Shown piece by piece: positions 12,528 through 58,725 of a stretch of DNA of 64,000 bases. The position numbers were made by a program, and so were the translations under genes. The DNA lies in assembly GCA_965205865.1 (NCBI GenBank), contig CBDBHR010000025.1, positions 64,001 to 128,000 of the forward strand, written 5' to 3'. The notes under the pieces were generated by a model. The model had not been told where the DNA came from, searched no databases, and saw nothing but the letters and a program-made list of their open reading frames with translations. The DNA comes from a bacterium (GTDB lineage Bacteria > SAR324 > NAC60-12). Position 1 is the first letter of the stretch; each line of letters begins with the position of its first letter.

Positions 12528-14051
12528 TTAAAAATCGAGTTTTTTCAACGCGTCATGGTAAACCGCTTCATATTGTTGGGCCGCCGTATGCCAATCAAAG
12601 CGTTGAGCCATCGCATTTTGGATGAGCTTTTGAAAGTCGTGGGGGCGGTCGTGGTAGAGAGTCAAAGCTTCCTTGATACAATTTTTCAGGGCCGGCGAGC
12701 TTGGATCGTTAAAAAGGAATCCCGTCCCTTCCGTATCAGTATAATGGCGCACAGAATCCTGCAATCCTCCAACAGATCGCACGATGGGCAGAGTTCCATA
12801 ACTCAAACTGTACATTTGATTCAGCCCGCAGGGCTCGAAAAGGGATGGCATCAAGAAAAAATCACTGCCTGCCTCGATCCAATGTGACAACTGATCGTCG
12901 AACCGATTATGCCATCGCATGTTTTGCGGAAAACGACGGGCGATTTCATGCAGTGCTTCCTCGATCCAATTTTCGCCTATGCCCAGAATGATCAGTTGCA
13001 CCTTCCAGTTTAAAATATCCCCCAGTGAGTCCAGCAGATAAGCAAAACCTTTTTGCCGGGTTACCCGCGTGACCATACCGATCATCGGAATATGAGGCGC
13101 ATCCGGCAACTGAAAATACTGCTGAAGTTCTTTTTTGCAGACTGCCTTCCCCTGCAATTCCTCTGCATCAAAATTTGCAGGAATGATAGGATCGGTAGCG
13201 GGGTCCCACTTTTGGTAGTCGCATCCGTTCAAAATACCCGGCAGGTCTTCCTGGCGGTTGAGGAATGCCTCGCGTAATCCGTGTCCTCCCAGGGGAGTCA
13301 ACAGTTCACGGGCATACCCCGGACTGACAGCGTTGATCTTATCCGCCCAGGCAACCCCGCCCTTGAGCAAATTGATCTGGCCATTATCTTCAAAAAGACC
13401 AGGTTTGAAATGTTGCCAACCAATGCCCAAAAATTCCCTCTCAGACGGAGGGAAATGTCCTTGAAAGGAAGCGTTATGCAAAGTGAGAACGGAAACCGAC
13501 TTTTGAAAAAAAGGATTGCCATTCTCATGTTTTTTGAGATAAAAAGGAATGATGGCGGTATGCCAGTCATTGCAATGAATTACGTCTGCCGAAAAATCCA
13601 AAACCTGACATGTACGCAGAACCGCCTTTGAGAAAAAGCCAAAACGCCGGGCATTGTCGGCAAAGGGGACGGTACCGTCACCATATAGTTGATCTCCGGA
13701 AAAGTAAAAATCGTGTTCGATGAAGTAAACGGGCACCTTGGTTAAGCGACGAGACGGCACTTCTCCTTCCAAAAATCCCTGCCGCAGCGCAAACCGAATT
13801 TCCGTGCCGCCCATCCGTACTACCAATGCTTCTGCTGCGGGAAAAACCTCTAATGCTTGGAGGGTTCCCACCCGGTCGATCGGAAAATACGGTGGGAGGA
13901 GCGAACGGTAATATGGCAAAATAACCCGTACATCGTGACCACGCTCTTTGAGGACCAGGGGGAGGGCTCTTCCAAAATCAGCCAGTCCTCCGGTTTTCAC
14001 CAAGCCTTCGACTTCAGAAATTACCAACATTATCTTCAGCTGTTCAGCCAA
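12528..14051 (-). CDS. glgA: Glycogen synthase, carrying an in-frame repeat insertion
   Basis: KTGGL, IHCNDWHT, GILNG, PSLFEPCGLNQM; probable TTG start with AAGGAG overlapping the glgC end. Confidence 0.95.
   Translation of the reverse strand: MAEQLKIMLVISEVEGLVKTGGLADFGRALPLVLKERGHDVRVILPYYRSLLPPYFPIDRVGTLQALEVFPAAEALVVRMGGTEIRFALRQGFLEGEVPSRRLTKVPVYFIEHDFYFSGDQLYGDGTVPFADNARRFGFFSKAVLRTCQVLDFSADVIHCNDWHTAIIPFYLKKHENGNPFFQKSVSVLTLHNASFQGHFPPSEREFLGIGWQHFKPGLFEDNGQINLLKGGVAWADKINAVSPGYARELLTPLGGHGLREAFLNRQEDLPGILNGCDYQKWDPATDPIIPANFDAEELQGKAVCKKELQQYFQLPDAPHIPMIGMVTRVTRQKGFAYLLDSLGDILNWKVQLIILGIGENWIEEALHEIARRFPQNMRWHNRFDDQLSHWIEAGSDFFLMPSLFEPCGLNQMYSLSYGTLPIVRSVGGLQDSVRHYTDTEGTGFLFNDPSSPALKNCIKEALTLYHDRPHDFQKLIQNAMAQRFDWHTAAQQYEAVYHDALKKLDF
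13860..13901 (-). repeat. 42-bp palindromic element, in-frame in glgA
   Basis: CTCCTCCCACCGTATTTTCCGATCGACCGGGTGGGAACCCTC = LLPPYFPIDRVGTL. Confidence 0.85.
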
Positions 14052-15273
14052 TATGGGCTCCTTTTGGAATGACGACGATCCCGTTTTCAGAAACCGTGTA
14101 TTTTTGACGATCTGCTTCGAGATCACTTCCGATGACGATTCCCGCAGCAATTTTTACATCTTTGTCAACGATTGTTCTGGAGATGCGGGCGCCTCTGCCT
14201 ATTTCAGTATTATCCATCACCACGGACTGTTTAATATGAGAAAAACTATGCACCCTCACTCCATATCCGAGGATCGATTCTTCCACGAGGGCGCCGCTGA
14301 CGACGCAGCCGGCACTGACCACCGCATTGATTGCATGTCCGGTGCGGATGACGCTGTAATGGACGAATTTGGCAGGAGGATGAGGCGGACGATAGGTTCG
14401 AATGGGCCATCTGGTATTGTAGAGATTAAAGACCGGGTCAATCCGTACCAAATCCATATTGGATTCCCAGTAGGTATCGATCGAGCCGACGTCCCGCCAG
14501 TAGCCACGGTTTTTTTCTTCCATTCCCGGGATTTGATTTTGGTGGAAATCATAGACAAAAACACGCTTCTGCGGATAGAGTTTGGGAATAATATCCTTGC
14601 CGAAATCATGAGAGGATTGGTTATCTATCGCATCTGCATGGAGTTCCTCGAGCAGCGGATCGGTATTGAAAATATAATTCCCCATGGAAGCCAGCGCATG
14701 TTCAGGATCTCGTGGAATGGTTTTCGGATGTTCTTTGGGTTTTTCTACAAAACCCGTCATCCGCCAATCTTCATCCACTTCAATAATCCCGAAGTGGAAG
14801 GCTTCCGCAATGGGAACCGGGATTGCCGCTACAGTCAATGCCGCTTTTTTCTTTTCATGAAAGCGGATCATTTGACGGATATCCATCTGGTAGATGTGAT
14901 CGCCTCCGAAAATGCAAACGATATCCGGTTCTTCATCATAGATCAGGTTCAGGTTTTGATAGATCGCATCGGCGGTGCCCTCGTACCAACGTTTCCCCGT
15001 CCGCATTTGCGCTGGGACCGGATCAATGAAATTTCCGGTGATCTGTCCTGAAATCCGCCATCCTTGACGCAGGTGCTGCATCAGGGAATGGGATTTAAAT
15101 TGGGTCAGCACAAATATCCGAATCAATTCCGAATTGACAAAATTGGAAATCACAAAGTCTATGATGCGGTAATTTCCGCCAAAGGGAACAGCGGGTTTCG
15201 TACGGACTGCGGTTAGAGGATAAAGTCGGCTCCCTTCTCCTCCTGCCAGGATCATGGAAACAATTCTATTCAC
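14044..15273 (-). CDS. glgC: Glucose-1-phosphate adenylyltransferase
   Basis: ILAGGEGSRLYPLT, KPAVPFGG, WYEGTADAIYQN, HDFGKDIIP; GTG start after GGAGGAG. Confidence 0.97.
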   Translation of the reverse strand: MNRIVSMILAGGEGSRLYPLTAVRTKPAVPFGGNYRIIDFVISNFVNSELIRIFVLTQFKSHSLMQHLRQGWRISGQITGNFIDPVPAQMRTGKRWYEGTADAIYQNLNLIYDEEPDIVCIFGGDHIYQMDIRQMIRFHEKKKAALTVAAIPVPIAEAFHFGIIEVDEDWRMTGFVEKPKEHPKTIPRDPEHALASMGNYIFNTDPLLEELHADAIDNQSSHDFGKDIIPKLYPQKRVFVYDFHQNQIPGMEEKNRGYWRDVGSIDTYWESNMDLVRIDPVFNLYNTRWPIRTYRPPHPPAKFVHYSVIRTGHAINAVVSAGCVVSGALVEESILGYGVRVHSFSHIKQSVVMDNTEIGRGARISRTIVDKDVKIAAGIVIGSDLEADRQKYTVSENGIVVIPKGAHIG

Positions 15274-15278
15274 GGCTT

Positions 15279-15320
15279 CTCCTCCCACAATATCTATTGA
15301 ATGATCGCGTGGGAATCCAC
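15279..15320 (+). repeat. 42-bp palindromic element (degenerate) overlapping the glgC RBS
   Basis: CTCCTCCCACAATATCTATTGAATGATCGCGTGGGAATCCAC. Confidence 0.65.
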
Positions 15321-15351
15321 ATGAGGTCGAGTGCCTTTCCGTCAATCCGTT

Positions 15352-18042
15352 TCAGACCCGCAACTCCGCATTCAATTCCTGCTTGAGTTGCCGGATGATT
15401 TTTTCCCGGATGGGTTCGACGTCCTCATCCGTCAGGGTACGGTCAAATGCCTGGTAAGTCATGGCGAAGGCCAGACTTTTTTTATTACTGCCAACCCGCT
15501 TTCCCCGAAAGACGTCAAACAGATGAACCTTTTCCAGTAGTGGATGTCCTGTTTGCAAAATGAGAGATTCTACCTGCCCGGCAGGTATGGATTCATCCAC
15601 AACAAAAGCCAAATCTTCATAAATAGGGGCGTAGATGGGCATTTCGATCATCATATGGATCTGATTCCAATGGCGCAAGAGTGCTTTCAACTCAAATTCT
15701 GCCAGGCAAACCGGTTGTTCGGGTAATCCAAAACAACGAACCACTTTTGGATGGATTTCTCCCATTTGACCGAGAATTTCTCCCTCAATCATGATGGCGG
15801 CAGATCGACCGGGATGATAAATCCCTCCTTCACTTTTCTGCCAGCTTGTCTTCCGGATATGCAAGCCTTCCATCAATGTGACCAGCACGCCTTTGAGGTC
15901 ATAAAAATCCAGCTTATCCTCGTGCTCACTTTGGCTCACTCCCTCCTTTTGTAAAGGGGGACAGGGAGATTGGGAGTTTTTTGCTCCGTCCAACCAGGAA
16001 GGTGGCAAGCGTTTGCCGGTCATCAGGATCGTCAAATAAGGGATTTCATCAGGCAGGAGTTCCCCCTCTCGGGGCTGATAAATGTTGCCGATTTCAAAAA
16101 CGGCCACCCGCTCCTTGAATCGCAAATTTCTCTTTGTCGTTGTCAAGGCGCCAGGTATGAGCGATTGTCGCATGTGCGTTCTCTCCGCCGATAAAGGATT
16201 TTGCAATGCGAGATAACGTGAGGGTTCCCACCCCCCTTTTTGCGAGGGGGATTTTCGGACAATACTGTGGGAAGGATCCACTCCCCCTTCAGCTAAGGGG
16301 GACGGGGGAATTTGAAGTTCTTTTTGCTCGTCCGGAACCAAACGAGCCTCGTCCTGCGGATCGACGATTGAATAGGTAATGATTTCATCCAATCCCGTCT
16401 CTACGATAATGTCTCGGACTTTCTCCGTACCTGACAACTGCGCATTGCGTTGTGATGCGGAAGGTCGAGTTTTGGGCAAGACATCGTTCATCAAAGTACC
16501 GGGCATTCGATTGTACCCATAGACCCGAGCCACTTCCTCCACCAAATCCGCGGCAAGCCGGACATCCATACGGTGACTGGGGACTGTGACCTGCAATTTA
16601 TCTCGCACAACCACCTGAAATGCCAGTCTTTCCAGGATTTTGACAATTTCCCCCCGAGACAAGTCAACTCCCAGTAAGCGGTTCACGTAGAGAGGATCCA
16701 ATTCGATTTCAATGCTTTCTCTTTTCTTGAGATAAAGATCCCCATAAGCGCTATTGAGGAATCCACCAGCATATTCTTCCATGAGCCGTGCTGCCCGCAC
16801 AGCGGCTTTCAGAGTCAATTCCGGATCCAGGCGCTTGCCAAATCGCTCACTGGCCTCCGTTCGCAATTTCAATAGCTGGCAGGTCCGGCGATTGTTTAAA
16901 AATTCGAAATTGGCCGATTCCAGCAAGATTCTTTTGGTGGTGGAAGACACTTCCGTCTCGGCTCCTCCCATTATTCCGGCAATGGCAACCGGACCTTTGG
17001 CATCGGTGATGAGCAGCATTTGATCGTCAAACTCGTGTTCCACCCCATCCAGGGTGGTCATGCGCTCCCCCGATTGAGCACGACGGACGCGGATCATTGG
17101 CTGTCTCCCTTCTGCGCGCTCTTTCAGAAGGTCATAATCAAAGGCATGGAGGGGTTGTCCCATTTCCAGCATTACATAATTGGTGATATCCACAATATTG
17201 TTAATGGGGCGCATCCCTGCCCTCAACAGACGCTGTCGTACCCAAAACGGAGAAGGTCCTACCCGCACTCCGTCGATCAACAATCCCGAGTATCGCCCAC
17301 AAAGATCAGAGTTCTCGATTTCGAGTTTCACAAAGGACGGGTGTTCAGCAATTTCGTTCGTCTGAGAGGTCCCACCCGACCGGTCGGACAATACTGTGGG
17401 GAGGGACAATTTTTTCAAGATATCCTGGTTGAGAGGAGTTTCCGTCAAGGCGGCTACTTCTCGCGCGATGCCGAAAATTGCCAACAAATGGCTGAAACCT
17501 CCTTTGATATCAAAATGAAATATGGTATCTCCCAGAGATGTTTTCAAAGATGCGCCTACCAGAAGCTCGTCTTCGCTAAACAACATCACCCCTTCGTGGT
17601 CGTCACTGAGCCCCAGTTCTTTTTCAGAACACAGCACCCCTTCGGAAAGAATTCCGCGAATCCTGGCTGGTTTGAGGACTAAGGTTTTTTCCTCCTCACC
17701 GTGAGATTCCACCAGAACGGCGCCCGGAAGAGCCAAAGCCCCTTTGAGAGGCTTAGGGATTTCCTTATTTTCATAGCACCTCAGATTGGGTGCTCCGCAA
17801 ACCACTTGCAACTGCTCAGTTGGTCCATAATTTACTTTTACCAAAGAAAGTTGGTCAGCATTGGGATGTGGCAAGACTTCCAGAATTTCGGCGATAAGAA
17901 AAAGATTTTCTTCCCAATGCGCGCCGATAGTGTCGACCATCTCGATTTCCAAGCCAGCCAAAGTCAGGCGTTCTGCCAGTGCGTTCGGGTCGGAAGTTGC
18001 CACATAATCATTGAGCCAGCTGACAGGAACAGATAACGCCAT
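15352..18042 (-). CDS. pheT: Phenylalanyl-tRNA synthetase beta subunit with in-frame repeat insertions
   Basis: HPNADQL, VVCGAPN, RPINNIVDITNYVMLE.GQPLHAFD, DLVEEVARVYGY, HPGRSA, C-terminal FDX-ACB domain; 896 aa. Confidence 0.97.
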   Translation of the reverse strand: MALSVPVSWLNDYVATSDPNALAERLTLAGLEIEMVDTIGAHWEENLFLIAEILEVLPHPNADQLSLVKVNYGPTEQLQVVCGAPNLRCYENKEIPKPLKGALALPGAVLVESHGEEEKTLVLKPARIRGILSEGVLCSEKELGLSDDHEGVMLFSEDELLVGASLKTSLGDTIFHFDIKGGFSHLLAIFGIAREVAALTETPLNQDILKKLSLPTVLSDRSGGTSQTNEIAEHPSFVKLEIENSDLCGRYSGLLIDGVRVGPSPFWVRQRLLRAGMRPINNIVDITNYVMLEMGQPLHAFDYDLLKERAEGRQPMIRVRRAQSGERMTTLDGVEHEFDDQMLLITDAKGPVAIAGIMGGAETEVSSTTKRILLESANFEFLNNRRTCQLLKLRTEASERFGKRLDPELTLKAAVRAARLMEEYAGGFLNSAYGDLYLKKRESIEIELDPLYVNRLLGVDLSRGEIVKILERLAFQVVVRDKLQVTVPSHRMDVRLAADLVEEVARVYGYNRMPGTLMNDVLPKTRPSASQRNAQLSGTEKVRDIIVETGLDEIITYSIVDPQDEARLVPDEQKELQIPPSPLAEGGVDPSHSIVRKSPSQKGGWEPSRYLALQNPLSAERTHMRQSLIPGALTTTKRNLRFKERVAVFEIGNIYQPREGELLPDEIPYLTILMTGKRLPPSWLDGAKNSQSPCPPLQKEGVSQSEHEDKLDFYDLKGVLVTLMEGLHIRKTSWQKSEGGIYHPGRSAAIMIEGEILGQMGEIHPKVVRCFGLPEQPVCLAEFELKALLRHWNQIHMMIEMPIYAPIYEDLAFVVDESIPAGQVESLILQTGHPLLEKVHLFDVFRGKRVGSNKKSLAFAMTYQAFDRTLTDEDVEPIREKIIRQLKQELNAELRV
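15940..15971 (-). repeat. CCCCCTTT..AAAGGAGGG hairpin repeat, in-frame in pheT (QSPCPPLQKEG)
   Basis: Same family at 16229-16251, 16282-16312 and intergenic 60686-60710. Confidence 0.75.
16220..16312 (-). repeat. Composite insertion in pheT: 42-bp element with nested and adjacent CCCCC..GGGGG hairpins
   Basis: Encodes IPPSPLAEGGVDPSHSIVRKSPSQKGGWEPS. Confidence 0.8.
17364..17405 (-). repeat. 42-bp palindromic element, in-frame in pheT
   Basis: CCCTCCCCACAGTATTGTCCGACCGGTCGGGTGGGACCTCTC = LPTVLSDRSGGTS. Confidence 0.85.
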
Positions 18043-22664: not shown

Positions 22665-24713
22665 TTATTCCAAACTTTTTTCCTTTTTAGTTTCCGACTC
22701 ACTTTCAAGATCATCCGTACTTTCAGTAGATTCGGCACTGTCCGTTTCCCCGGGAGTTATAGTTGCAACCTTCCCGGCAAAGGTCCCTGTTGATTCCTCC
22801 ACAGGCGCTTCGAGTTCTTCGGAGTCAGTTTCTTTTGTATCCTCTACGGGCGCTTCGGTTTCTTCGGGGCTGGTCTCCGCTGATGCTTCGGATTGTTCGG
22901 AAGTCACCACAGCCGTTTCTTCTACTGCCACTTCACTTTCTGCAGCGTCTGCAGAATTCTTTTCATCAAGAGCTTCAGACTCCACAGTAGCCAAATCCGC
23001 AGACCTTTCCGAGGCTCCCTCCTCGTCCAACGCTTCCGACGTCTCGACACCCGGAGGCGGAACTACGGTATTTCTTTCCAGGATACTCAAGCCGAGCCGT
23101 CGCTCTTCAGGATCTATCTTAATCACCCGGGTGTGTACTTCAGTACCAAGGGAATAGAATTCTGCAAGTTTGGCTTTGGGTATAGCCGGGTCGATTTCCG
23201 AGATATGAACCAGACCTTCCACTCCTTCCAAAACCTCCACAAAGATCCCAAAATCGGTGATGTTGACAATTTTTCCGGTAACGTCACTGCCAATTTGATA
23301 TTTCTCATCCAAATTCTTCCAAGGATCTACGGAAAGTTGCTTGATACCTAAAGACAACCGCTCCTGATCGACATCGATATTGAGAATCTTGACTTCGATT
23401 TCGTCTCCTTTCCGCACAAAATCCGCAGGACGTTTTTGACGTTGACTCCAGGAGATATCGGAAACATGAACCAACCCGTCGATTCCTTCATCAAGTCCCA
23501 CAAAAATCCCAAACTCCGTCACATTGCGCACTTTTCCCATCACCACACTGCCAATCGGATAGATTTCCGAGGCCTGTTTCCAGGGATTGGGCAGTGCTTC
23601 TTTCATCGAGAGGGAAACGCGCCTGTGCTCCACATCCAAATCCTTGACGATGGTTTCCACTACCTCTCCCAGATTGACAAAGCGGGAAGGATTGCGGATT
23701 TTTTTAGTCCAGGACATTTCGGAGATATGGATCAAACCTTCAATTCCGGGTTCCAGTTCTATAAAGGCGCCATAGTCGGTCAGGCTGACTATTTTTCCGG
23801 CAACGCGTGTTCCCACCGGAAACTTATCCGAAGCGTTTTCCCAGGGATTCGGTGTTTTCTGTTTCATTCCCAGCGACACTTTCTGGAATTCTTTATCATA
23901 TTTCAACACCAGCACATCCACTTCATCTCCAATCTCAAACATCACGGAAGGATGCACAATACGTCCCCAAGTCATGTCCGTGATATGTAACAAGCCATCC
24001 ACTCCCCCGAGATCCACAAAGACCCCGTAATCGGTAATGTTCTTGACGTGCCCCTTCATTATTGTATTTTCTTGGAGAACTTCCAGTGTTTCTTTGCGAC
24101 GTCGCTCCCGGTCTACTTCCAGAAGCGCCCGGCGAGATAAGACGATATTGCCGCGTTTCTGGTTGAATTTGAGAATCGAGAATTCAAAAGATTCTCCAAT
24201 CAGCTTGTCCAGATTACGAACCGGTCGCAAATCGACCTGGGACCCTGGTAAAAATGCTTTGACCCCGATGTCTACTGACAATCCCCCTTTGATCCGTGCG
24301 GCAATCACCCCGTCAATGGTGCCACTTTCTTCAAAAACCTGGCCGACTTTTTCCCAAATTCTCAGTTTACGGGCTTTTTCTTTGGAAAGCCGGGTCACGC
24401 CATCTTCTTCTTCCAGCGCCTCCACATAAACTTCTACATGATCGCCAATCTCGATCTCGTAGTGGCCTTCCATGTTGACAAACTCTTCAATCGGAATTTG
24501 TCCTTCCGATTTATATCCGATGTCCACGGTCACAAAGTCTTTAGAAATTTTAGTAACCGTCCCTCCAACAATTCCATTCTCTTTGACGTTGCCGGATGTT
24601 TCTTCGTATAGCGCGTCAAAATCAATTTCATCTTCAACAAACAATATGGATTCTTCCTCCGCAGAGGAATCCAGCACTTCATTTGATTCTATTGTGGTTT
24701 CATCCGCATTCAT
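22665..24713 (-). CDS. rpsA: 30S ribosomal protein S1 with a long acidic C-terminal tail
   Basis: Six S1 repeats (VDIGYKSEG, AFLPGSQVD, DGLLHITDM, EGLIHISE and others). Confidence 0.97.
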   Translation of the reverse strand: MNADETTIESNEVLDSSAEEESILFVEDEIDFDALYEETSGNVKENGIVGGTVTKISKDFVTVDIGYKSEGQIPIEEFVNMEGHYEIEIGDHVEVYVEALEEEDGVTRLSKEKARKLRIWEKVGQVFEESGTIDGVIAARIKGGLSVDIGVKAFLPGSQVDLRPVRNLDKLIGESFEFSILKFNQKRGNIVLSRRALLEVDRERRRKETLEVLQENTIMKGHVKNITDYGVFVDLGGVDGLLHITDMTWGRIVHPSVMFEIGDEVDVLVLKYDKEFQKVSLGMKQKTPNPWENASDKFPVGTRVAGKIVSLTDYGAFIELEPGIEGLIHISEMSWTKKIRNPSRFVNLGEVVETIVKDLDVEHRRVSLSMKEALPNPWKQASEIYPIGSVVMGKVRNVTEFGIFVGLDEGIDGLVHVSDISWSQRQKRPADFVRKGDEIEVKILNIDVDQERLSLGIKQLSVDPWKNLDEKYQIGSDVTGKIVNITDFGIFVEVLEGVEGLVHISEIDPAIPKAKLAEFYSLGTEVHTRVIKIDPEERRLGLSILERNTVVPPPGVETSEALDEEGASERSADLATVESEALDEKNSADAAESEVAVEETAVVTSEQSEASAETSPEETEAPVEDTKETDSEELEAPVEESTGTFAGKVATITPGETDSAESTESTDDLESESETKKEKSLE

Positions 24714-28657: not shown

Positions 28658-28901
28658 AGGTCATTTGCTTCGCATGATGAGAACGACGTATCTATTACAT
28701 TAAAAGATAAAGTTCCTTTTTGTCCCGGAAATGATATGATTCTCCCTGATGGTGGTCACATTTTGTTGACGTGGTGGACGCAGCTTCCTCAACTTCGCAA
28801 ATTGCCGTTCAAATATATGGGTTCATGGTGCTGAAGCGCTGTTGGGTATCCGCATCCTCGAGACAAATGAGAAATATTAATTCAGAAAGTTGAAATTGGT
28901 G

Positions 28902-41419: not shown

Positions 41420-41505
41420 TAGGGACGGTGTTCATATACAAAAATCGTTTAATATGGATTTCAGGCAGAAGGGTATCACTACCGCCTAATCCAGCCCATC
41501 CTGCT

Positions 41506-42498: not shown

Positions 42499-42683
42499 AG
42501 TAGGCTCCTTTCTAGTTTTATTTTAGTTGACCATAATTTTATACTCTTCTGGATATTAATTGCAAACAAAAAATTTGACATCATTTTGCTTTCAAATTAG
42601 GGGATATGTTTCAATTTTGTCCAATTTTGAGTGGTCATAGTAGGCTCCTTTCTAGTTTTATTTTAGTTGACCATAATTTTATA
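42461..42683. repeat. 140-bp tandem duplication of the phyH start and upstream region; second copy split by the IS and resuming at 44387-44440
   Basis: 42461-42543 matches 42601-42683; 42539-42591 is near-identical to 44387-44439. Confidence 0.9.
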
Positions 42684-44386
42684 CCTAAATCCTGCAATTA
42701 GATGACAATCAAACATGGAAATGGTAATATACTCAAATAGTTAACACCAGAATCAACATTTTAAGAGATCACCATTACCATGAAAAACAAAGGTAGCGCA
42801 AGATCGGCAAGAACGACAGCAAAAAACATCCATATCAGCCAGGGAGGCAGAGACCTGACCGCGCAAGCAGGCAAAAAACTTGATTCCGGTTGTCAAATTT
42901 TTTCACAAAGAAGGGATTGTTTCAAAGACAGAGCAGACCGTAGATCATCGGCGTGGCGCCACGGGTCTTTATGACGCGGTGGACATGGTCATTTTGTCGG
43001 TGGTCGGCATTGTTGGTGGCGCCCGTTCGATTCGTTCGATTGTGACAGTTTGGAACGACCGTGTTTTGAGTCGTGTGGCCGGTTGGCTGAGGATTCCGGA
43101 TGAAACCACATTCGGCCGGATACTGCGTACTTTCACACAGAAAAACATCAATGAGATGGAGAGCTTGAACCATCGGATTCGAGCCGGTATCTGGCGTAAG
43201 GCGCTTCGAAGTGGGACAAGCATCGTTGGGGTGTTACACTGTCTTGTGATTGACGTGGACTCCACTGTGAAAACGGCCTACGGCAAGCAGCAAGGAGTGT
43301 CTGTCGGATATAATCCCCACAAACGCGGTGCAGCTTCGTATCATCCTCTGCTGGCATTTTGCGCAGAGACAAAGGAGATTCTTCAGGGTTGGCTTCGTGA
43401 TGGGAGTGCCTATACCAGCAATGGAGTCGTTGAATTCATGCGGCAACTTCTCGCTCACCTTCCAAATCGGACTCGCACTCTGTTTCGTGGAGACAGTGGT
43501 TTTTTTGTGGGGGATTTGCTGGATTTCCTCGAAGAACGAGGCCATGGCTATCTGATCAAGGTCAAACTCAAGGGGCTTGTCTCGTTGTTGGAAACCCAAA
43601 AATGGCAAAAAGTGAAGGGGCAGCCCGCTTGGGAAGGGTGTGAGTTTTCCCACCAATGTGAAACTTGGAGGAGGTCAAGAAAATTCATGGCCGTACGCAG
43701 GGAGAAAGAGGAGGAACTCAAAGGGATGGCCACCCTCTTTGAGATGAAGGAGTACGATTATTTTTGTTATGTTCTCACTGACGCGCTCACTCCCTGGCAG
43801 GCTCACAAAGAGTATGGCCAAAGGGCGGTCGCTGAGACATGGATTGAGGAAGCAAAAAATCAAACTGCGCTGGCTCAGATTAAAACCGACGATTTTTGGG
43901 CCAACAGTGCCTTGTTCCAATGCGCGATACTCGCTTACAACACGCTGCGCTGGATGGCCCTTTGTAGTGGTAACGCAATACTGCGCCGTTGGGAACCGGC
44001 CACCATGCGCACCTATCTTGTCCGAATGGCAGGAAAATGGACGAGTGGCGCTCGTCAACAAAAACTGAGAGTTCCGGAAAGAACACTTTACAATGCTCAA
44101 TGGGATGCATGGGTCGCTGTTGGAGAGACCTGGATCCTTTGTTTCACTCCAGTGGATACATTTTGCTGAGATGTAGATTCCCAAATCCAGGGAGAAGTAC
44201 GTCTTGAATCTTGTGCCCGCGAAAGCGGGTATCAGATCATCACAAAATATGACGATCTAATGGAGGGCGGAAAAACCTTTATGAGCAAGGACTGATGGAA
44301 ATTCAACTCTCAAATCCTTTTTTTTAAAAAAACCTCTCAAAGAGTGGGGGGAAACTCAATCAAAATATTCAATTGCAGGATTTAGG
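42684..44386 (+). mobile_element. IS1380-family element, copy 1 (transposase frameshifted by a 7-bp insertion)
   Basis: IRs CCTAAATCCTGCAATT; 5-bp TSD TTATA; IDVDST, FRGDSGF and E..IEEAK motifs. Confidence 0.95.
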
Positions 44387-44889
44387 TTATACTCTTTTGG
44401 ATATTAATTGCAATCAAAAAATTTGACATCATTTTGCTTTTAAAGTAAGAAAGGCGATTTTCTTTGAATCGATTTTATCATTTGTAGCCATGAGCTTGAG
44501 AAAAGTACTCTTGATTATCGAGACAGAATAGATGAAAATAATGAAAAATTTCTGTTCACTGTGACAAAAAGTATGCCAATACTTTGATTTTTCAAAAAAA
44601 TGTAGCCCCGCACGCGAAATTTTATTTCTGAGCTAAGCCAGTAAATACAAGGGGTTGATCCATTTTTAGTTCAGAAGGTGGGGCAAAAAAATCAAAAAAA
44701 AGGCCCCAGATGCATTTTTTGTATTGATTTATCTATAATAATTCACTAGGGTCACCATATAGGTTCTTGAGGGAAGAGGAAGTGAGTTGAAGTGAAACCG
44801 ATTCCGCTTCCTCAGGGAATCTTTCTGTATTTCATCCTATCTCAATGAATCAGATGGGGAATTTTATCCTTTAAATAATAGGAGAACAT

Positions 44890-46620
44890 ATGTCTTTAAA
44901 AAAATGGATAACTCTTTTGGTGGGGCTGACCCTGGTGGGGGTCTTGTCTCATGTGTATGCGCAATCCTATGGGGGCTACATCAATGTTGCGGGACGGAAT
45001 GTTTCCGCTTGTTGGCAGCCCGTCCATGTCAGTGTTTGTATTGAGAAACAAAGCCTACTCACTGATTACCTGTTAGAGTCGGACTTAACAAAGGGGCCGC
45101 GAGGTACCGGTGAATTTACATTCGCTAACCAGTCGAACTATTCACTCAAAGGATTAAGAGGCTCTTTGCTGGAATCCTGGGAACAGCCGACTGCCCATAG
45201 TCTGGTTTTTAAAGTGCGTAAGGGCATCCACTTCCATAATAAACCCCCCGCAAACGGCCGAGAACTGAATGCTCGGGATATTGTACGCGACTGGGAAATC
45301 CTTACCGCCGATACAAGAGCCGGCGGCTTGTATGAAGCGCACAAACTCTCCAAGTGGACTGCCCGGGATGACTGGACGATTGATGTGGAGATGGTCGAAC
45401 CGGATGTTCCCGGAATCTGGGCGCAGGATCTCTTGCTGATAGCCATTCCGGCACCCGAATGGAAGGAGATCGAAGACAAAATGGATGATTGGCAGACGGT
45501 GAAAAACAGTGGGATCTTCACGGGACCCTTTCTGCTGGAGGATCATGTCGACTTGAGTGTGACCACCTACAAAAAGAACCCGGACTATTGGGGGAAGGAC
45601 GTCTTCAACACGGACGATCAAGTCCCCTACGTGGACGGCATGAGGATCGTAGATTTTGCCGATTCGGCGGCAAAAACGGCAGCCTTGCGCTCCGGCAAGC
45701 TGGACATCATCAGTATGTTTGGTCTGAGTGGCGAGGAAAAAGATGCGGTGGAGAAGACGAACCCTGAAATAAAATATGTCCCCGGCTTCGTCATGGGCCT
45801 CTTCACTTTTGTGAGGGCCGATTTGCCGCCTTGGAACGATATCAGGGTCCGCTATGCGGCCCATATGGCCATCAACTACGAAGAAGTTCGTGACGATTTT
45901 TACAAAGGCAACGCTTGTTTCCCCAGTTTACCTCAAAATTGTTCGGTCGGGGAACGCCTGGGAATGGATTGGCTGAAGAAATACCGCCCTGACCTGGCCA
46001 AGCTGTTTGAGTATCACCCCGATGAGGCCAAAAAACTGCTGGCCGATGCGGGCTATCCCAATGGCTTTGACACCGAATTGATTGTCGCCCATAGCTGGGT
46101 CGAACATTTCGAATTGATGTCCACTTACCTTGAAGATGTCGACATTCGTGTTACTTTGAAGCCGGTGGAGCAAACCATGATGTATTCCAGCATTCACCCG
46201 GGACCGGAAGGGCCGGATGATAAAGTCTACACCGGTATGGGTGCTCATGACACCGGGTGTAATAACCTCAACTTGGCGTGCTTGTCCAAGTGGCACGGGG
46301 CAGACGCCCCGTTCTTCGGCCAAGGTTTTATCCAAGGCACGATCCCGGACAATAAGATGCGGGCCTTGCAGAACGCCTATAAAAGCGAGACGGACCCCAT
46401 CGAGTCCAGGCGTATCTGGACCGAATTGTATCTCCTGTGGTATGAACTGGCCTGGGGGATTAATTGGATGGGCGTGAATACGTATAACCACTGGCAGCCG
46501 TGGGTTCAAGGATATGAAGGTGCCGGCGGGTACGAATCGCCCAGACTTAACCTGGTCAAGTACTACTGGATTGACACAGACATGAAGAAGCAAATGAGCG
46601 GACGCGACCCGAATGAGTAA
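44890..46620 (+). CDS. Family 5 substrate-binding protein, copy B (intact)
   Basis: AGGAG RBS, signal peptide, LLESWE, TGPF, KNPDYW, DIRVRYA. Confidence 0.95.
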   Translation: MSLKKWITLLVGLTLVGVLSHVYAQSYGGYINVAGRNVSACWQPVHVSVCIEKQSLLTDYLLESDLTKGPRGTGEFTFANQSNYSLKGLRGSLLESWEQPTAHSLVFKVRKGIHFHNKPPANGRELNARDIVRDWEILTADTRAGGLYEAHKLSKWTARDDWTIDVEMVEPDVPGIWAQDLLLIAIPAPEWKEIEDKMDDWQTVKNSGIFTGPFLLEDHVDLSVTTYKKNPDYWGKDVFNTDDQVPYVDGMRIVDFADSAAKTAALRSGKLDIISMFGLSGEEKDAVEKTNPEIKYVPGFVMGLFTFVRADLPPWNDIRVRYAAHMAINYEEVRDDFYKGNACFPSLPQNCSVGERLGMDWLKKYRPDLAKLFEYHPDEAKKLLADAGYPNGFDTELIVAHSWVEHFELMSTYLEDVDIRVTLKPVEQTMMYSSIHPGPEGPDDKVYTGMGAHDTGCNNLNLACLSKWHGADAPFFGQGFIQGTIPDNKMRALQNAYKSETDPIESRRIWTELYLLWYELAWGINWMGVNTYNHWQPWVQGYEGAGGYESPRLNLVKYYWIDTDMKKQMSGRDPNE

Positions 46621-46838
46621 ACTCGTCTAACCGCTCGATCCACACCAAGGGGTTGGATGGATCCGTCCAACCCCTTTTTTTGTTTTATGTGAGTTCACCT
46701 GAGTCCGGAGTAGAAAATCTCTTCCTGAAAATCCTTTCCTCTCTTGATGGGAGCCGTACGTGGAAGCGGCCGACGTGGAGCGGGCTGGGGTGGTGAGGGA
46801 AGGGGGGAACTTTTTCTTGACTACATAGGGAAAACAAC

Positions 46839-47833
46839 GTGCAGACCTATATCCTCCGAAGATTCCTCCTGGTCATCCCCACCCTGCTTATAGTCTCGGT
46901 CTTGGTGTTCTTCAGCCTGCGCTTCATCCCAGGGGATGCCATCGACGTCATGGTCAGTCATCAGCGATTTGTTGCCGATGACGATGCCAGGGCCATGATC
47001 CGGAAACATCTGGGGTTGGATTTGCCCATCCATGTACAGTATGGGCGCTGGTTCAACGGGGTGCTACAAGGAGACCTGGGCAGATCCATGTGGACAGACG
47101 CGCCGGTCACCCGAATCCTCCTGGAGGCGCTGCCTGTCTCCCTGGAAGTGGGCCTCTTGGCCATTTTCTTTTCATTGATCATCGCCTTGCCTGTCGGCGT
47201 CTATTCCGGGATACGGCCTGACACGAAGATGGATCATCTCATTCGCAGCCTTGCCATTTTCTTCATCTGTGTGCCCAGCTTCTGGATCGGGACGATGGTC
47301 ATGATCTATCCCTCCATCTGGTGGCGCTGGTCGCCCCCGATGTTCTATGTGCCTTTTCTTAAGGACCCCCTGGACAACCTGGCCATGGTGATCATTCCGG
47401 CTCTCATTCTGGGGATGTGGCTCTCCGGGATGACCATGCGCTTGATGCGCAACACGATGCTGGAGGTGCTCCGAGCGGACTACGTCCGGACCGCTTGGGC
47501 CAAGGGGCTCCGGGAACGGGTGGTGGTGACGCGGCACGTGTTGAAGAATTCGCTGATCCCGGTGGTCACGCGTTCAGCTGGGCTATTGGCCGCGCTGCGG
47601 CCGCCCAGCCTCTCTGCGGTCTGCAACTCCCCGTCTTGATTGGCGGGGCGGTGGTGGTGGAATACATCTTTGGCCTGCCCGGCATCGGCCGGCTGGTCGT
47701 CGACTCGATTAAGATTCGCGACTATCCCATCATTACCGGCGTCAACGTCTATGCGGCCATCTTTGTGTTAGTGATCAATATCATCATCGACCTCAGCTAC
47801 GCCTGGCTCGACCCGCGGATTCGGTTTAAATAG
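46839..47833 (+). pseudogene. OppB-like permease, copy B, frameshifted by an insertion at 47570-47616
   Basis: 47 bp replace CATGGT of copy A (net +41). Confidence 0.85.
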
Positions 47834-47872
47834 CTGTCAGCTTTCTGCTCTCAGTTTTCGCTTAGCACTGAA

Positions 47873-48814
47873 ATGTTAGTCACGAAAGAGTCAACATACA
47901 AAAGAAGAAAACCCATTCGGGAATTCCTATCCCGGCTGTTTCGGGAGAAACCCTTAGGGGCGCTGGGTGGGATCATCGTTCTGGTCTTTTTGTTCATCGG
48001 TATTTTTGCCGACGCCCTCGCCACCCATGGCATGCTCCAGCGCAACCTGAAGCACCGGCTGGAAGGCCCCTCTGTCCAATTCCCCCTGGGGACTGACCAA
48101 ATGGGCCGGGATCAGTACAGCCGTCTGGTTCAGGGAGCTCGCATTTCGATGGTTGTCGGGTTGGCTAGTTGCGCGATCGCTCTGCTAATTGCCACGACCT
48201 TCGGCTTGATCTCGGGATACTGGGGTGGCAAATTTGACCTCATCCTGCAGCGCTTTGTCGACGCCTGGTTGAGCCTCCCAGCATTGTTTATCCTCTTGAC
48301 GGTGATGGCGCTGCTGGGGCCAGGCTTGATCCAGATGATCAGCGTGTTAGGGGCGTTTTGGGGGATTGCCAACATCCGGACGGTCCGCGGAGTGGTGCTG
48401 AGCGCCAAGGAGAATTTGTATGTCGAGGCGGCCCGGGCGACCGGAGCTCGTCCCCCACGCGTACTCTTGCGGCACATCCTGCCCCAGATTGTCGCGCCCA
48501 TCATCACCGTGTTCACCGTGGCTCTCGGGGGCATCATCCTCGATGAGGCCACCATTAGTTTCCTCGGCTTCGGTATTCCGCCGCCCCAGCCCAGTTGGGG
48601 GGGCATGTTGAGTCTGGAAGGCCGCAAGTACATGGAAAGCCAGCCCCTGCTGGCCCTCTTTCCCGGCCTCTGCCTGGCCATCGTCGTCTATGGGGTCAAC
48701 ATGTTTGGCGACGCCTTGCGCGATCTGCTCGATCCCCGCCTGCGAGGTGCCGGACGCATGGGCAGCGCCAAGATTCCCCTGAGACGAACCCTCCTCATCA
48801 ACCCTGACAAATAG
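47873..48814 (+). CDS. OppC-like permease, copy B
   Basis: Protein identical to copy A except the last residue. Confidence 0.95.
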   Translation: MLVTKESTYKRRKPIREFLSRLFREKPLGALGGIIVLVFLFIGIFADALATHGMLQRNLKHRLEGPSVQFPLGTDQMGRDQYSRLVQGARISMVVGLASCAIALLIATTFGLISGYWGGKFDLILQRFVDAWLSLPALFILLTVMALLGPGLIQMISVLGAFWGIANIRTVRGVVLSAKENLYVEAARATGARPPRVLLRHILPQIVAPIITVFTVALGGIILDEATISFLGFGIPPPQPSWGGMLSLEGRKYMESQPLLALFPGLCLAIVVYGVNMFGDALRDLLDPRLRGAGRMGSAKIPLRRTLLINPDK

Positions 48815-52810: not shown

Positions 52811-54506
52811 CCTAAATCCTGCAATTGAATATTTTGATTGAGTTTCCCCCCACTCTTTGAGAGGTTTTTTTAAAAAAAAGGATTTGAGAGTTGAATTTCC
52901 ATCAGTCCTTGCTCATAAAGGTTTTTCCGCCCTCCATTAGATCGTCATATTTTGTGATGATCTGATACCCGCTTTCGCGGGCACAAGATTCAAGACGTAC
53001 TTCTCCCTGGATTTGGGAATCTACATCTCAGCAAAATGTATCCACTGGAGTGAAACAAAGGATCCAGGTCTCTCCAACAGCGACCCATGCATCCCATTGA
53101 GCATTGTAAAGTGTTCTTTCCGGAACTCTCAGTTTTTGTTGACGAGCGCCACTCGTCCATTTTCCTGCCATTCGGACAAGATAGGTGCGCATGGTGGCCG
53201 GTTCCCAACGGCGCAGTATTGCGTTACCACTACAAAGGGCCATCCAGCGCAGCGTGTTGTAAGCGAGTATCGCGCATTGGAACAAGGCACTGTTGGCCCA
53301 AAAATCGTCGGTTTTAATCTGAGCCAGCGCAGTTTGATTTTTTGCTTCCTCAATCCATGTCTCAGCGACCGCCCTTTGGCCATACTCTTTGTGAGCCTGC
53401 CAGGGAGTGAGCGCGTCAGTGAGAACATAACAAAAATAATCGTACTCCTTCATCTCAAAGAGGGTGGCCATCCCTTTGAGTTCCTCCTCTTTCTCCCTGC
53501 GTACGGCCATGAATTTTCTTGACCTCCTCCAAGTTTCACATTGGTGGGAAAACTCACACCCTTCCCAAGCGGGCTGCCCCTTCACTTTTTGCCATTTTTG
53601 GGTTTCCAACAACGAGACAAGCCCCTTGAGTTTGACCTTGATCAGATAGCCATGGCCTCGTTCTTCGAGGAAATCCAGCAAATCCCCCACAAAAAAACCA
53701 CTGTCTCCACGAAACAGAGTGCGAGTCCGATTTGGAAGGTGAGCGAGAAGTTGCCGCATGAATTCAACGACTCCATTGCTGGTATAGGCACTCCCATCAC
53801 GAAGCCAACCCTGAAGAATCTCCTTTGTCTCTGCGCAAAATGCCAGCAGAGGATGATACGAAGCTGCACCGCGTTTGTGGGGATTATATCCGACAGACAC
53901 TCCTTGCTGCTTGCCGTAGGCCGTTTTCACAGTGGAGTCCACGTCAATCACAAGACAGTGTAACACCCCAACGATGCTTGTCCCACTTCGAAGCGCCTTA
54001 CGCCAGATACCGGCTCGAATCCGATGGTTCAAGCTCTCCATCTCATTGATGTTTTTCTGTGTGAAAGTACGCAGTATCCGGCCGAATGTGGTTTCATCCG
54101 GAATCCTCAGCCAACCGGCCACACGACTCAAAACACGGTCGTTCCAAACTGTCACAATCGAACGAATCGAACGGGCGCCACCAACAATGCCGACCACCGA
54201 CAAAATGACCATGTCCACCGCGTCATAAAGACCCGTGGCGCCACGCCGATGATCTACGGTCTGCTCTGTCTTTGAAACAATCCCTTCTTTGTGAAAAAAT
54301 TTGACAACCGGAATCAAGCCTGCTTGCGCGGTCAGGTCTCTGCCTCCCTGGCTGATATGGATGTTTTTTGCTGTCGTTCTTGCCGATCTTGCGCTACGTT
54401 TGTTTTTCATGGTAATGGTGATCTCTTAAAATGTTGATTCTGGTGTTAACTATTTGAGTATATTACCATTTCCATGTTTGATTGTCATCTAATTGCAGGA
54501 TTTAGG
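52811..54506 (-). mobile_element. IS1380-family element, copy 2, intact 460-aa transposase (53028-54410)
   Basis: Same IRs as copy 1; 5-bp TSD TTTCA. Confidence 0.95.
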
Positions 54507-55189: not shown

Positions 55190-55618
55190 ATGCAAAAAAA
55201 AATTCAGAACCGCCTCATGTATGGTGCCGTGATTGGGATTACGACCGCTGACAATCATAAAGTGATTCAGTTTCTCAAAGAAGGGTTACCCATTTCCTCA
55301 TTTACCAAACTTCAGAATGCGTTGGCCATCTCCAGTAAACAACTGGCGAGCGTGGTCAACATTTCCCTACGGACAATCAATCGACGTCAAAAGGAAGGGA
55401 ATTTACGTCCTGATGAATCTGAAAGGGTCCTGAGAATTGCCAGACTTTTTGATATGGCCAGAGAGTTGTTTGAGGATGACCAATTGGCCCGGCAGTGGTT
55501 CAAGTCTCCGAAACGAGCATTGGATGGGAAGACTCCTCTGGATTTTGCTGTTACCGAGCCGGGGGCTCAGGAAGTCGCAGATTTACTGGGGCGACTGAAG
55601 CATGGAGTGTTCTCTTGA
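55190..55618 (+). CDS. Xre/MbcA/ParS-type antitoxin
   Basis: ISLRTINRRQKEG..ESERVLRIARL..WFKSP..LDGKTPLD..LGRLKHGVFS. Confidence 0.92.
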   Translation: MQKKIQNRLMYGAVIGITTADNHKVIQFLKEGLPISSFTKLQNALAISSKQLASVVNISLRTINRRQKEGNLRPDESERVLRIARLFDMARELFEDDQLARQWFKSPKRALDGKTPLDFAVTEPGAQEVADLLGRLKHGVFS

Positions 55619-55895
55619 AAAAAGCCTGGCGCATGGTGGCTCCTCAATATGTGGATCAGGCATTTGATGGAGAAGGCGCGAGGATTTATGGGAGACGGTG
55701 CAACAGTAAAGGAACTTCCATGGTCTATACTGCGAGTTCTTTATCGCTTGCTGCAATGGAAATTTTAGTCCACTTGGATTCAGATGAAATATTGAACCGT
55801 TATGTTTGTATTCCAATCGAGTTCCCCTCTAAACTGTCGCTCCTATTCAATCAGCAGGCTCTTCCCAAAAATTGGAGGAACAGGGTCGCGCCTCT
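55615..55895 (+). pseudogene. RES-domain toxin, truncated
   Basis: AFDGEGARIYGRRCNSKG..VYTASSLSLAAMEILVH..LPKNWR, then interrupted by the repeat. Confidence 0.85.
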
Positions 55896-55985
55896 TCACA
55901 TCCTCCCGGGGTATTGTTCAATCGATCGAGCGGGAACCCTCCCACAGCTAATTTTGAATCAAACGAGCGGAAGTCCTCTCCTTCG
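55895..55985 (+). repeat. Tandem dimer of the 42-bp element; near-identical inverted copy at 58355-58443
   Basis: TCCTCCCGGGGTATTGTTCAATCGATCGAGCGGGAACCCTC-CCACAGCTAATTTTGAATCAAACGAGCGGAAGTCCTC. Confidence 0.85.
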
Positions 55986-55989
55986 GGTT

Positions 55990-56178
55990 CAAGGTTGGCG
56001 CGCAATGCCTCCGAACTCCCTTGTCCGTTACCTCTTCCGCGACTCGCGCCGCGTTGTCGAGGTCGATGTCCGCGACGATCAGGTTTGCGCCCGCATCGGC
56101 GAATGCCAGGCAGTTGCCGCGACAGATCCCGCTGCCCCCGCCCGTCACGAGCCCGACCTTCCCTTCGAAACTGTCCAT
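55990..56178 (-). pseudogene. SDR oxidoreductase N-terminal fragment
   Basis: FEGKVGLVTGGGSGI..FADAGANLIVADID, cut at the repeat. Confidence 0.8.
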
Positions 56179-56247
56179 AACCCCTTTCTTGTCTTTATGA
56201 AAAAAAGCGCATTAAGTGATTTTTTCAATTAATTATCTCTTCACAAC

Positions 56248-57668: not shown

Positions 57669-57864
57669 TTTCAAACCGTTTAGTTTTGAGAAAATTCCCC
57701 TGAAAATATAGTTTTCTGTCAGGCGCTAACTCCAATCATTTCTAATACTTTCTATCCATTTCTTGATTTGGAACCTATTCTGAGATATTTTGAATACTGG
57801 GATAATATTCAAATCTTTGTTTGAGTTTCAGAGGGCTCACTTATTTTACAGATTAAATTTTTAA

Positions 57865-58125
57865 TGTTGGATTGAGAATTGAAGCTCTCGAAGCAGAAAA
57901 TAAGCAACTCCGGGACCGGCTGGCTCTCAACAGCCAAAACTCGAGTAAGCCACCATCCACCGATGTAAGTCGCAAGAGCAAAAGTTTTTGATTTCCCCTC
58001 TCTGCAATGAGAGGTTACCGAACACCAAGTGGAACAAAAAATTTACTCGATCGTTTGATCCTCTATGAAAAGGAAAGCTTGTTATTCATGCATGACTTTC
58101 AAGTTCCTTTTGACAACAACCAAGG
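57865..58125 (+). mobile_element. IS66-family transposase remnant with internal deletion
   Basis: IEALEAENKQLRDRLALNSQNSSKPPSTD and [19 protein letters not shown]. Confidence 0.8.
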
Positions 58126-58210
58126 AGCATGCTTACCCATGATTTACCTCCCTGGCAAAGCGTTTACGATCATGATCGCCGTTGGAAAAAACGCTGGACT
58201 GTGGAGCGAA
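58126..58210 (+). mobile_element. IS5-family transposase scrap
   Basis: [23 protein letters not shown]. Confidence 0.6.
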
Positions 58211-58354
58211 CATTCGCTTTTTGGCTCATGCCGGAGATGGACCACAATATATTTTTATAGCTGATCACCATTGTTGCGCAATTCTCCTGATCCAAACTTG
58301 CTATAGGCTTTGCGCCGCGTAGTAGTGCTGAAATCATGCCTTGTTGTTTCAGGG

Positions 58355-58725
58355 AAGGAGAGGACTTCCGCTCGTTTGATTCAAAATTAGCTGTGGAAGG
58401 ATTCCCGCTCGATCGATTGAACAATACCCCGGGAGGATGTGAAAACGATGGATCCTTGCCGGGAATCTTTTTTCAACGTTATTGAACTGAACGGCTTCTG
58501 ACTGTCCCCGGATTTGAGCAGATTTATTGTTTTTTTTTGCGAATCCTGCATTTATTTTATATTAGGGGGTTGACATTGCGTTGTTGTTGTACTACAATCA
58601 TGCCATCATTGAGTTGTTTTAGTGAATGAGAAGGTTCCCGATCGATTGAACAATATCGTGGGAGGACTTAAAAACGATTGATCTTCCCCGGGAATCTTTT
58701 TTAATGATATTGATCTAAACGGGTT
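58355..58725. repeat. 42-bp element copies (58355-58443, 58630-58666) within a ~95-bp direct repeat bracketing a promoter
   Basis: 58397-58495 is similar to 58631-58725. Confidence 0.8.
58570..58598 (+). promoter_or_regulatory. Sigma-70-like promoter
   Basis: TTGACA-17 nt-TACAAT. Confidence 0.75.

Follow-up and report, generated by a model that had tools for sequence, protein, structure and literature searches.

A genus-specific 36-nt repeat in the SAR324 lineage, at home in leaders of solute-binding-protein genes and present in frame in housekeeping genes

Modular intergenic repeats of pneumococcus, BOX and SPRITE (rho-independent terminator-like), have a variable number of sub-units, form terminator-like hairpins and can affect the expression of their neighbours; to our knowledge they are found neither as 12-codon in-frame insertions in housekeeping genes nor as the fixed leader of one gene class. 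Heterocyst-forming cyanobacteria reportedly carry repeats of about 20-30 nt, attributed to Elhai and co-workers, that are inserted precisely, are sometimes nested or intragenic and are said to have no known enzyme. Rickettsia palindromic elements (RPE), of about 150 bp and in ten families, are presented in a review as in-frame insertions in unrelated genes (PMC10969869, citing Ogata et al., 2000, 2002). Repetitive extragenic palindromic (REP) sequences and REPINs bear a GTAG or CGTC tetranucleotide tag at one end (PMC3733652) and go with RAYT transposases (PMC3733652, PMC3116915). Here a short repeat is analysed that was noticed in a 64,000-nt stretch of a SAR324 bacterium (contig CBDBHR010000025.1, positions 64,001 to 128,000; hereafter the window). 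A preliminary description of the window, made from its letters alone, had likened the repeat to RPE, and the review bears out that likeness as far as insertion in frame is concerned. The repeat is a very small version of the RPE phenomenon with an unusual regulatory home, a conserved leader ahead of ABC (ATP-binding cassette)-transporter solute-binding-protein genes, which is its main home and was absent from the preliminary description. Taken as a whole, the reading that a genus-specific 36-nt unit resides in this leader and has been copied as a block into genes, preferably by template switching, is considered probable.

The genome that holds the window (G000; 4.74 Mb in 30 contigs, in which the window is G000:C25:64001-128000) was compared with G001, a sister species of the same genus, and with G004, G007, G009 and G016 from other genera of the family. 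A nucleotide profile (nhmmer), built from eight window copies and iterated once over G000, gave at a cut-off of E≤0.01 212 matches in G000 and none in the same genome shuffled by 1-kb blocks, and the recurring element first noticed in the window is real by this measure. A degenerate 40-nt pattern with up to three mismatches was matched 71 times in G000 (38 forward, 33 reverse), its reversed control not once. The arm motif at the right spacing, taken alone, is weak (7 matches against 3.1 expected); the full profile alone is decisive. All ten sites of the preliminary description hold the repeat, and the profile search of the window recovers every one but 33323-33335, a proposed partial copy that is meaningless on its own. 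Among the window copies, 13859-13900, 30551-30597, 55895-55945, 58393-58443 and 58625-58671 score best (E 7e-10 to 6e-15); at the low end stand 30324-30350 (E 0.007) and a copy split into two halves at 16215-16279 (halves with E about 1). One further site was added to the earlier list and one is too short to count:

11025-11053, plus strand: partial copy (3' half), found by the profile with E 0.027 and missing from the earlier list
33323-33335, minus strand: 13-nt piece like the left part of the element, not recovered by the profile and too short for a copy

The unit itself is defined by 41 ungapped isolated copies, which have exactly 40 nt in common, of the form CCTC-N32-CCTC, between unrelated flanks.

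G000:C30:672753-672792: example copy of the unit, with the sequence CCTCCCACGGTATTGTTCAATCGATCGGGTGGGAACCCTC

At empty orthologous sites the net gain is exactly 36 nt (with one 37-nt case in G001), and codon alignments together with the alignment of isolated copies replace the length of ~42 bp that had been proposed by 40 nt with a 36-nt net gain. When duplicates are collapsed, the right end reads CCTC in 27 and the left end in 17 of 35 isolated copies, TC being retained in 30 and 29 of them, respectively. In arrays the units stand head to tail with a 36-nt period and CCTC is common to adjoining units. The two ends are direct (CCTC...CCTC; on the other strand GAGG...GAGG), not inverted, and the palindromic character ascribed to the element survives only weakly: at -3.35 kcal/mol, the consensus fold (RNAalifold) keeps four outer pairs well (TCCC/GGGA), and its inner pairs are few and poor. 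Neither element nor leader matches a curated family in Rfam 15, whether at the gathering threshold across the window or at E≤10 across 58250-58800, a comparison that the preliminary description had proposed.

The leader was exposed by 33 pairs of matches spaced 228-245 nt, which belong to a longer repeating unit of roughly 235 nt, and 122 of the 212 matches adjoin its flank modules. In gene sense TTGACA-17-TA(G/C)AAT comes first and a small hairpin next; the element follows in its G-rich sense, separated by a spacer from its short inverted copy, after which come six U in a run, a second hairpin, about 25 variable bases, AGGAG and the start codon. The element forms one half of the leader's long hairpin, in which the short inverted copy is its partner; this hairpin is branched and is followed by the U-run about 85-105 nt ahead of the start codon. 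At 61 of 71 leader loci a co-oriented gene lies downstream, with a distance peak at 100-120 nt. Within 400 nt there are 44 downstream genes, of which 40 were scanned: 30 belong to SBP_bac_5, five are transposases, one is an outer-membrane protein, one is PhoU-like and three were unassigned. The leader-bearing gene of the window is also SBP_bac_5, and in G001 binding proteins of three families make up 15 of 21 downstream genes (13 SBP_bac_5 and two of other families). Seen from the genes, 42 of the 133 SBP_bac_5 matches in G000 have a copy at most 1.5 kb upstream, all 42 in the G-rich sense. Intergenic loci lie between divergent genes in 31 of 88 cases and between convergent genes in 9, against a background of 558 divergent and 565 convergent among 3158, and between co-directional genes the two orientations of the copy stand at 40 to 8.

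Leaders are much better conserved than the genes behind them (83% identity, median over 200 nt, against 48% for the proteins, the two measures being uncorrelated). The halves of the leader hairpin, taken from fixed windows, pair in 91.4% of cells (35 leaders, both species), compared with 50-69% when the partners are slid by 1-3 columns; compensatory changes on both sides are seen in six pairs, so that covariation is modest and the structure conserved. Promoter, hairpin and U-run are all conserved sequence features, and pairing between the unit's own arms would be in competition with the terminator; from this arrangement we infer that the leader resembles an attenuator or terminator. The conservation, the compensatory changes and the sense orientation of all 42 repeat-bearing binding-protein genes speak also for another explanation, in which the leader, as a cis-regulatory RNA or DNA of a binding-protein regulon, would be the only functional entity, the copies in genes would be rare filler from break repair and the unit would have no self-propagation. 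In its favour, too, copies in genes have greater age and divergence and are fixed: their mean profile score is about 35, that of leader-linked copies 43-51, and no polymorphism was seen.

Two places of the window show the leader:

58340-58783, minus strand: two tandem leader units upstream of the SBP_bac_5 gene 58784-60613, with copies at 58355-58443 (two units) and 58625-58671 (one)
55895-55983, plus strand: two-unit leader fragment (a unit and a diverged second unit) at a rearrangement junction

On the plus strand each unit of 58340-58783 has a promoter-like site, a small hairpin, the G-rich element, its complementary short inverted copy and a U-run; the promoter-like TTGACA-17-TACAAT at 58570-58598 agrees with the sigma-70-like form in 11 of 12 positions. 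What had been recorded at 58.3-58.7 kb as element and dimer in reality belongs to the leader that precedes the binding-protein gene at 58784. About 93 nt of the fragment at 55895-55983 are near-identical, in inverted orientation, to 58355-58443, and a RES-domain toxin gene ceases to match its family at profile position 97 of 157, exactly at this fragment; the former 'dimer' at 55.9 kb is a leader fragment at a junction that truncates the RES-domain gene. The region 55190-56232 contains an Xre-type antitoxin gene, then the truncated RES-domain gene, an antisense N-terminal fragment of a short-chain dehydrogenase and an intact aldo/keto reductase gene. At 57870-58230, immediately before the leader, are fragments that read like the N-terminus of an IS66-family transposase (IS, insertion sequence), and an intact DDE (group 1) transposase gene occupies 53028-54410; both are unlinked to the repeat.

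Other features of the binding-protein genes were seen in passing. Upstream of the SBP_bac_5 gene 1294-3129, about 2.3 tandem copies of a 129-nt unit ending in a TTGACA motif are found at 243-540, and this unit may be a different leader type for SBP_bac_5 genes. Large duplications (93-100% identity) of an ABC-transporter operon segment (binding protein, two permeases) relate 35958-41775 to 41476-48814, with more distant paralogous ABC operons at 1294-5569 and 58784-62858, in a genome with at least 133 SBP_bac_5 matches.

The copies inside and beside the genes of the window are as follows:

13860-13901, minus strand: element copy in glgA (open reading frame, ORF, 12528-14150, minus strand; profile E 7e-10; Pfam GlgA domains)
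15279-15320, plus strand: copy in the spacer that separates the pheT stop from the glgC start (profile E 4.7e-5)
16228-16320, minus strand: 93-nt (31-aa) insertion in pheT, absent from all 15 aligned relatives
17368-17403, minus strand: 36 nt (12 aa, LPTVLSDRSGGT) inserted cleanly into pheT, where they separate the tRNA-binding from the B3/4 domain
30327-30368, minus strand: copy across the 3' end of an NtrC-like sigma-54 activator gene (28890-30356)
30553-30594, plus strand: in-frame copy in the C-terminal tail of yacG (SSHSIVQSTGLE; profile E 4e-8)

The most telling gene is pheT (15352-18042, minus strand, 896 aa), which was aligned with 15 relatives. Around the 36-nt insertion the full 40-nt copy spans 17364-17405, and in protein and codon alignments the 12-aa block is without counterpart in the 15 relatives, G001 among them. 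The 93-nt insertion consists of one element copy (16220-16277), split by a G/C-rich hairpin of another repeat family, and a second such hairpin. In G001, PheT shows three separate 36-nt gains, at three sites different from those in G000 and with the element in the opposite orientation, so that five independent insertions are counted over the two species with no site in common. In an AlphaFold2 model of PheT from 16 sequences (mean predicted local distance difference test, pLDDT, 72; predicted template modelling score, pTM, 0.53), the three large insertions (residues 216-227, 573-604 and 679-713) appear as low-confidence coil between confident elements, residues 573-604 with pLDDT below 50. Within pheT, the G/C-rich hairpin repeats (CCCCCT-loop-AGGGGG) sit inside the element or next to it (16228-16320 and about 15933-15989); a further 14-aa block of this kind (19 aa relative to other genera) lies at PheT residues ~686-704, and a 15-nt G/C-rich gain was seen upstream of recC.

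In glgA the copy lengthens the starch-synthase catalytic domain by about 12 residues (LLPPYFPIDRVG), and this block is missing from the orthologs of G004 and G009; the GlgA query gave no match in G001. A second lineage-specific GlgA block, of 9 aa, is located in the region 13600-13660 (protein LEGEVPSRRLTKV); it is likewise missing from G004 and G009 and is unlike the element. The copy at 15279, described before as lying inside a gene, is in fact intergenic, between pheT and glgC: its GGGAGGAG end stands 5 nt ahead of the likely GTG start of glgC, whose orthologs begin MS(T/N)ILSMILAGGEG, and by sequence it looks like a putative Shine-Dalgarno site of glgC. The NtrC-like regulator takes its final ~8 residues (EGSHTTDSQ) and its stop codon from the element; a diverged copy is also present in G001 (match 857998-858033), and the four other genera have different, shorter tails. 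The 12-aa block in the YacG tail is common to G000 and G001, where it has diverged, and is missing from G004, G016, G007 and G009. Ortholog alignments of PheT, GlgA and YacG therefore uphold the claim that the copies add peptide blocks to conserved proteins, the blocks being 12 aa long instead of ~14, and the test named for it, the presence of the same segments in unrelated orthologs, found them missing from the other genera compared.

Genome-wide, coding DNA is depleted of copies: 47 of 212 (22%) lie in open frames of at least 150 aa, compared with 77% of random positions. There are 48 contiguous loci in open frames of at least 120 aa, and 20 spanning ORFs (chosen for their length, plus a single representative of a repeated ORF) were scanned against Pfam; in 17 of the 20, Pfam families were found, mostly on both sides of the copy. 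By these Pfam assignments the copies are located as follows:

Lipoamide dehydrogenase (copy between the lipoyl and FAD domains), PurL, RecC (two sites) and RecB
AlaS, with a copy between the catalytic and editing parts
DAO oxidoreductase, Arg-tRNA-protein transferase, 5'-nucleotidase, Lhr and tricorn protease
SNF2-type helicase, with two two-unit arrays, and a major facilitator superfamily (MFS) transporter, with a copy in its central loop
Integrase, cupin protein, Schlafen-like protein and DUF255 protein
IS66-like fragment, itself multi-copy

Copies are found in about 20 genes with Pfam support; each of the six frames is used, and 16 copies have the opposite and 8 the same orientation. The preliminary description was right that the element is read in frame, and its restriction to three frames of one strand does not extend to the genome. 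The comparison of orthologs outside the window covered RecC, RecB and the tricorn protease. Both RecC copies are 36-nt gains of G000 relative to G001, the RecB and tricorn-protease copies, like those of YacG and the NtrC end, are older and common to both species, the orthologous copy at the recC/recB junction is a single unit in G000 and a double one in G001, and G001 has a 36-nt and a 37-nt gain of its own near the tricorn-protease gene. In total at least eight independent lineage-specific gains of 36 or 37 nt, with the same ends, were counted. It is at this point that the leader taken as the only functional entity loses ground: filler from break repair would vary in register, which these gains do not; pheT alone was entered five times in two species; and the 36-nt arrays with their strong local clustering suggest a property of the unit itself. 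That explanation is accordingly held to be very unlikely.

One multi-copy ORF that embeds the element is a side matter. An ORF of 162-182 aa with DUF6444 (IS66 N-terminal) contains one near-consensus copy, and it has four or five places beyond the first of these:

G000:C17:4232-4780: DUF6444 ORF
G000:C23:449-991: DUF6444 ORF
G000:C25:140456-140998: DUF6444 ORF
G000:C25:257213-257701: DUF6444 ORF
G000:C28:64384-64872: DUF6444 ORF

Since the element is embedded in this multi-copy ORF, it is also a passenger of an IS fragment.

The repeat is confined to the genus of the window. Within the family, 2 of 45 genomes, both from one of its 12 genera, contain the 40-nt pattern (71 matches in G000, four in G001); a sequence-only covariance model gave at least 73 matches in G001, where 150 of 1778 candidates were scored, and none in four genomes from three other genera. 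In an exact scan of one genome per species (185,579 species), which may omit the window's own genome, the record of G001 was the sole match, and the leader had no match in plasmid or phage collections. Five metagenome contigs of the Joint Genome Institute (JGI) that matched a 19.5-base half-pattern were discarded as chance, none having the left half of the element. A lineage-specific element had been proposed from the window, and its presence in one genus and in one other record among all these species agrees with that; with the ortholog alignments, this distribution supports the broader notion of a lineage-specific mini-element that lengthens conserved proteins.

How, then, does the unit spread? 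A second explanation assumes a non-autonomous element of REP/REPIN type or a miniature inverted-repeat transposable element (MITE), moved by a transposase encoded elsewhere, for instance an IS200/IS605-like Y1 (HUH) enzyme, that would insert it 3' of CCTC/YYTC without duplication; its own CCTC right end would be a new target, giving arrays. A discrete block with sharp ends and both orientations, a gain of exactly 36 nt, a target-like left tetranucleotide beside a conserved right end and the full unit with its short inverted copy in the leader, which recalls REPIN doublets, would all suit such an enzyme. Solo copies also cluster, as local hopping would have it: of the 49 non-leader loci, 20 are no more than 5 kb from another, while 1000 random placements averaged 4.55 such loci and never exceeded 14, and the stretch 11-33 kb of the window is one cluster of non-leader copies. 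G000 does have 15 Y1_Tnp matches; they lie, however, between 1.7 kb and more than 50 kb from the nearest element copy, most of them more than 5 kb away, and a link to a Y1 (IS200/RAYT-like) transposase was dropped. Copies in inverted orientation flank no gene regularly: 16 pairs within 5 kb bracket no recurrent gene, the only repetition being an inner ORF that measures 1521 nt in two of them, and bracketed cargo was set aside as well. Moreover, terminal inverted repeats are absent, the hairpin of the unit itself is weak, no GTAG or CGTC tag is present in the copies, and the copies are oriented evenly with respect to GC skew (21 to 20; the skew is weak in G000). A group II intron was also considered and rejected, none of 38 domain-V matches adjoining a copy (two within about 400 nt, beside leaders, are weak, at 31 bits). 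The earlier remark that no cognate transposase was evident is thus borne out by the genome-wide checks of Y1_Tnp and bracketed genes, and movement by a transposase encoded elsewhere is considered unlikely.

The reading preferred here is that of a leader module that is also copied as a block. The main and best-conserved home of the unit is downstream of a sigma-70-like promoter, where it pairs with its own short inverted copy. The 36 nt have besides been copied repeatedly as a precise block, into arrays within leaders and to new positions, frequently only a few kb away from an existing copy, and such insertions went on in both species after their split. Since the block equals 12 codons and is without stop in most frames, insertions in genes would be tolerated in linkers, tails or loops, surviving as 12-residue coils in PheT, GlgA, YacG, AlaS, RecB, RecC, PurL and others. 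The exact 36-nt register, the arrays, the conserved right and variable left end, the clustering and the failure to find an enzyme are the grounds on which we infer that copying may proceed by slippage during replication or by template switching, with the CCTC (or TC) microhomology of the two unit ends as primer; template switching is the preferred form. The boldest form of this proposal is put forward only tentatively and is rather doubtful: that the unit is enzyme-free selfish DNA born from a regulatory leader, the attenuator of dozens of binding-protein genes shedding copies of its 12-codon half-hairpin via CCTC microhomology, seeding arrays and surface loops, and that the leader is an undescribed cis-regulatory class over a third of a 133-member family.

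Several points weigh against the preferred reading. The context statistics use a crude ORF map that covers 75% of the genome, and the copies near the N-termini of the DUF255 protein, the Schlafen-like protein and the 5'-nucleotidase may be upstream of the true starts. The PheT model fits insertions that form loops, and only weakly suggests them, low pLDDT being expected from a shallow alignment. The species that provides the empty sites differs by about 20% in DNA, so that junctions are not readable to the base, and a GGAG/GAGG-like motif is found at only some of these sites. Contigs from four sequencing runs of other studies (three DNA-or-unknown libraries and one RNA library) retain all six window copies, with no 36-nt gap or joint, and do not support ongoing movement within the window's species. 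The RNA-library contig, of 3018 nt, spans pheT with both insertions and no gap, and may be carry-over of DNA. Copies in genes carry a TTTGATCG-type core and present-day leader copies TTCAATCG, and current leaders may not be the donors. From the unbroken contigs of the four runs, the lower scores of gene copies and their different core, it follows that the gene insertions are old and fixed in the window's species. Transcription and termination at the leader and translation of the blocks are, for their part, predictions from sequence.

A few features of the window are apart from the repeat. Three full-length matches to the Rfam family Acido-Lenti-1, at 4242-4287 (minus), 4317-4362 (minus) and 4533-4578 (plus), score 47-56 bits (gathering 37); they are the only Rfam matches of the window, lie between permease genes of an ABC operon and represent a different repeat from the 36-nt unit. 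A 682-aa ORF at 22665-24713 (minus strand) has three 261-nt-spaced repeats at 23193-23822, 65-100% identical, which look like an internal protein repeat. Identical 85-nt direct repeats at 42460-42544 and 42600-42684, 140 nt apart, are found in the spacer between the ORFs 41506-42498 and 42880-44169.

For annotation, the repeat accounts for lineage-specific 12-aa blocks and altered C-termini in conserved proteins, and it marks a candidate regulon of more than 40 binding-protein genes. The exact 36-nt gains at different sites of one gene in two sister species are unusually clean evidence, and insertion into genes is tied here to a promoter-plus-hairpin leader of transporter genes, which suggests a source and a route to testing spread without an enzyme.

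Set against the known systems, the unit departs from MITEs in that its ends are direct, no longer parent with a transposase was found in the searches described, and the copies in the IS66-like ORF are passengers; the 4-nt CCTC 'duplication' is here indistinguishable from a target preference. With BOX and SPRITE it has no sequence relation, as Rfam gave nothing for it. The small dispersed repeats of cyanobacteria differ in sequence and host group, and the 36-nt unit and its link to a promoter-plus-hairpin leader set the present repeat apart from them. More is shared with REP and REPIN sequences: the 20-40 bp size class, high copy number, a mostly intergenic location and, in the leader, an inverted pair that forms a long hairpin. 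While a single unit has four well-kept outer pairs and a weak interior, the leader unit and its inverted copy are 91% paired. The differences from REP/REPIN are that their tag is replaced by ends of the form CCTC...CCTC, that no RAYT-like (Y1/HUH) gene is flanked by copies, and that many copies are in frame in genes or strictly in sense upstream of one gene class.

The closest likeness is with RPE. As the review describes for RPE, a repeat without a gene of its own is found between genes and in frame in unrelated housekeeping genes, at tolerated sites and in a restricted lineage; judged by sequence, the blocks of PheT, GlgA and YacG and the copies in about 20 Pfam-supported genes would be in-frame insertions of this kind. 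Compared with RPE as described there, the unit is far shorter (36-40 nt, 12 residues), is barely palindromic and departs from RPE in size and palindrome alike; it forms 36-nt tandem arrays, most of its copies are a structural module of a conserved transporter-gene leader, and its host has a free-standing 4.7-Mb genome, whereas RPE hosts are reduced and intracellular. The Rickettsia phenomenon of selfish DNA in genes thereby extends to a unit of 12 codons in an unrelated, uncultured lineage.

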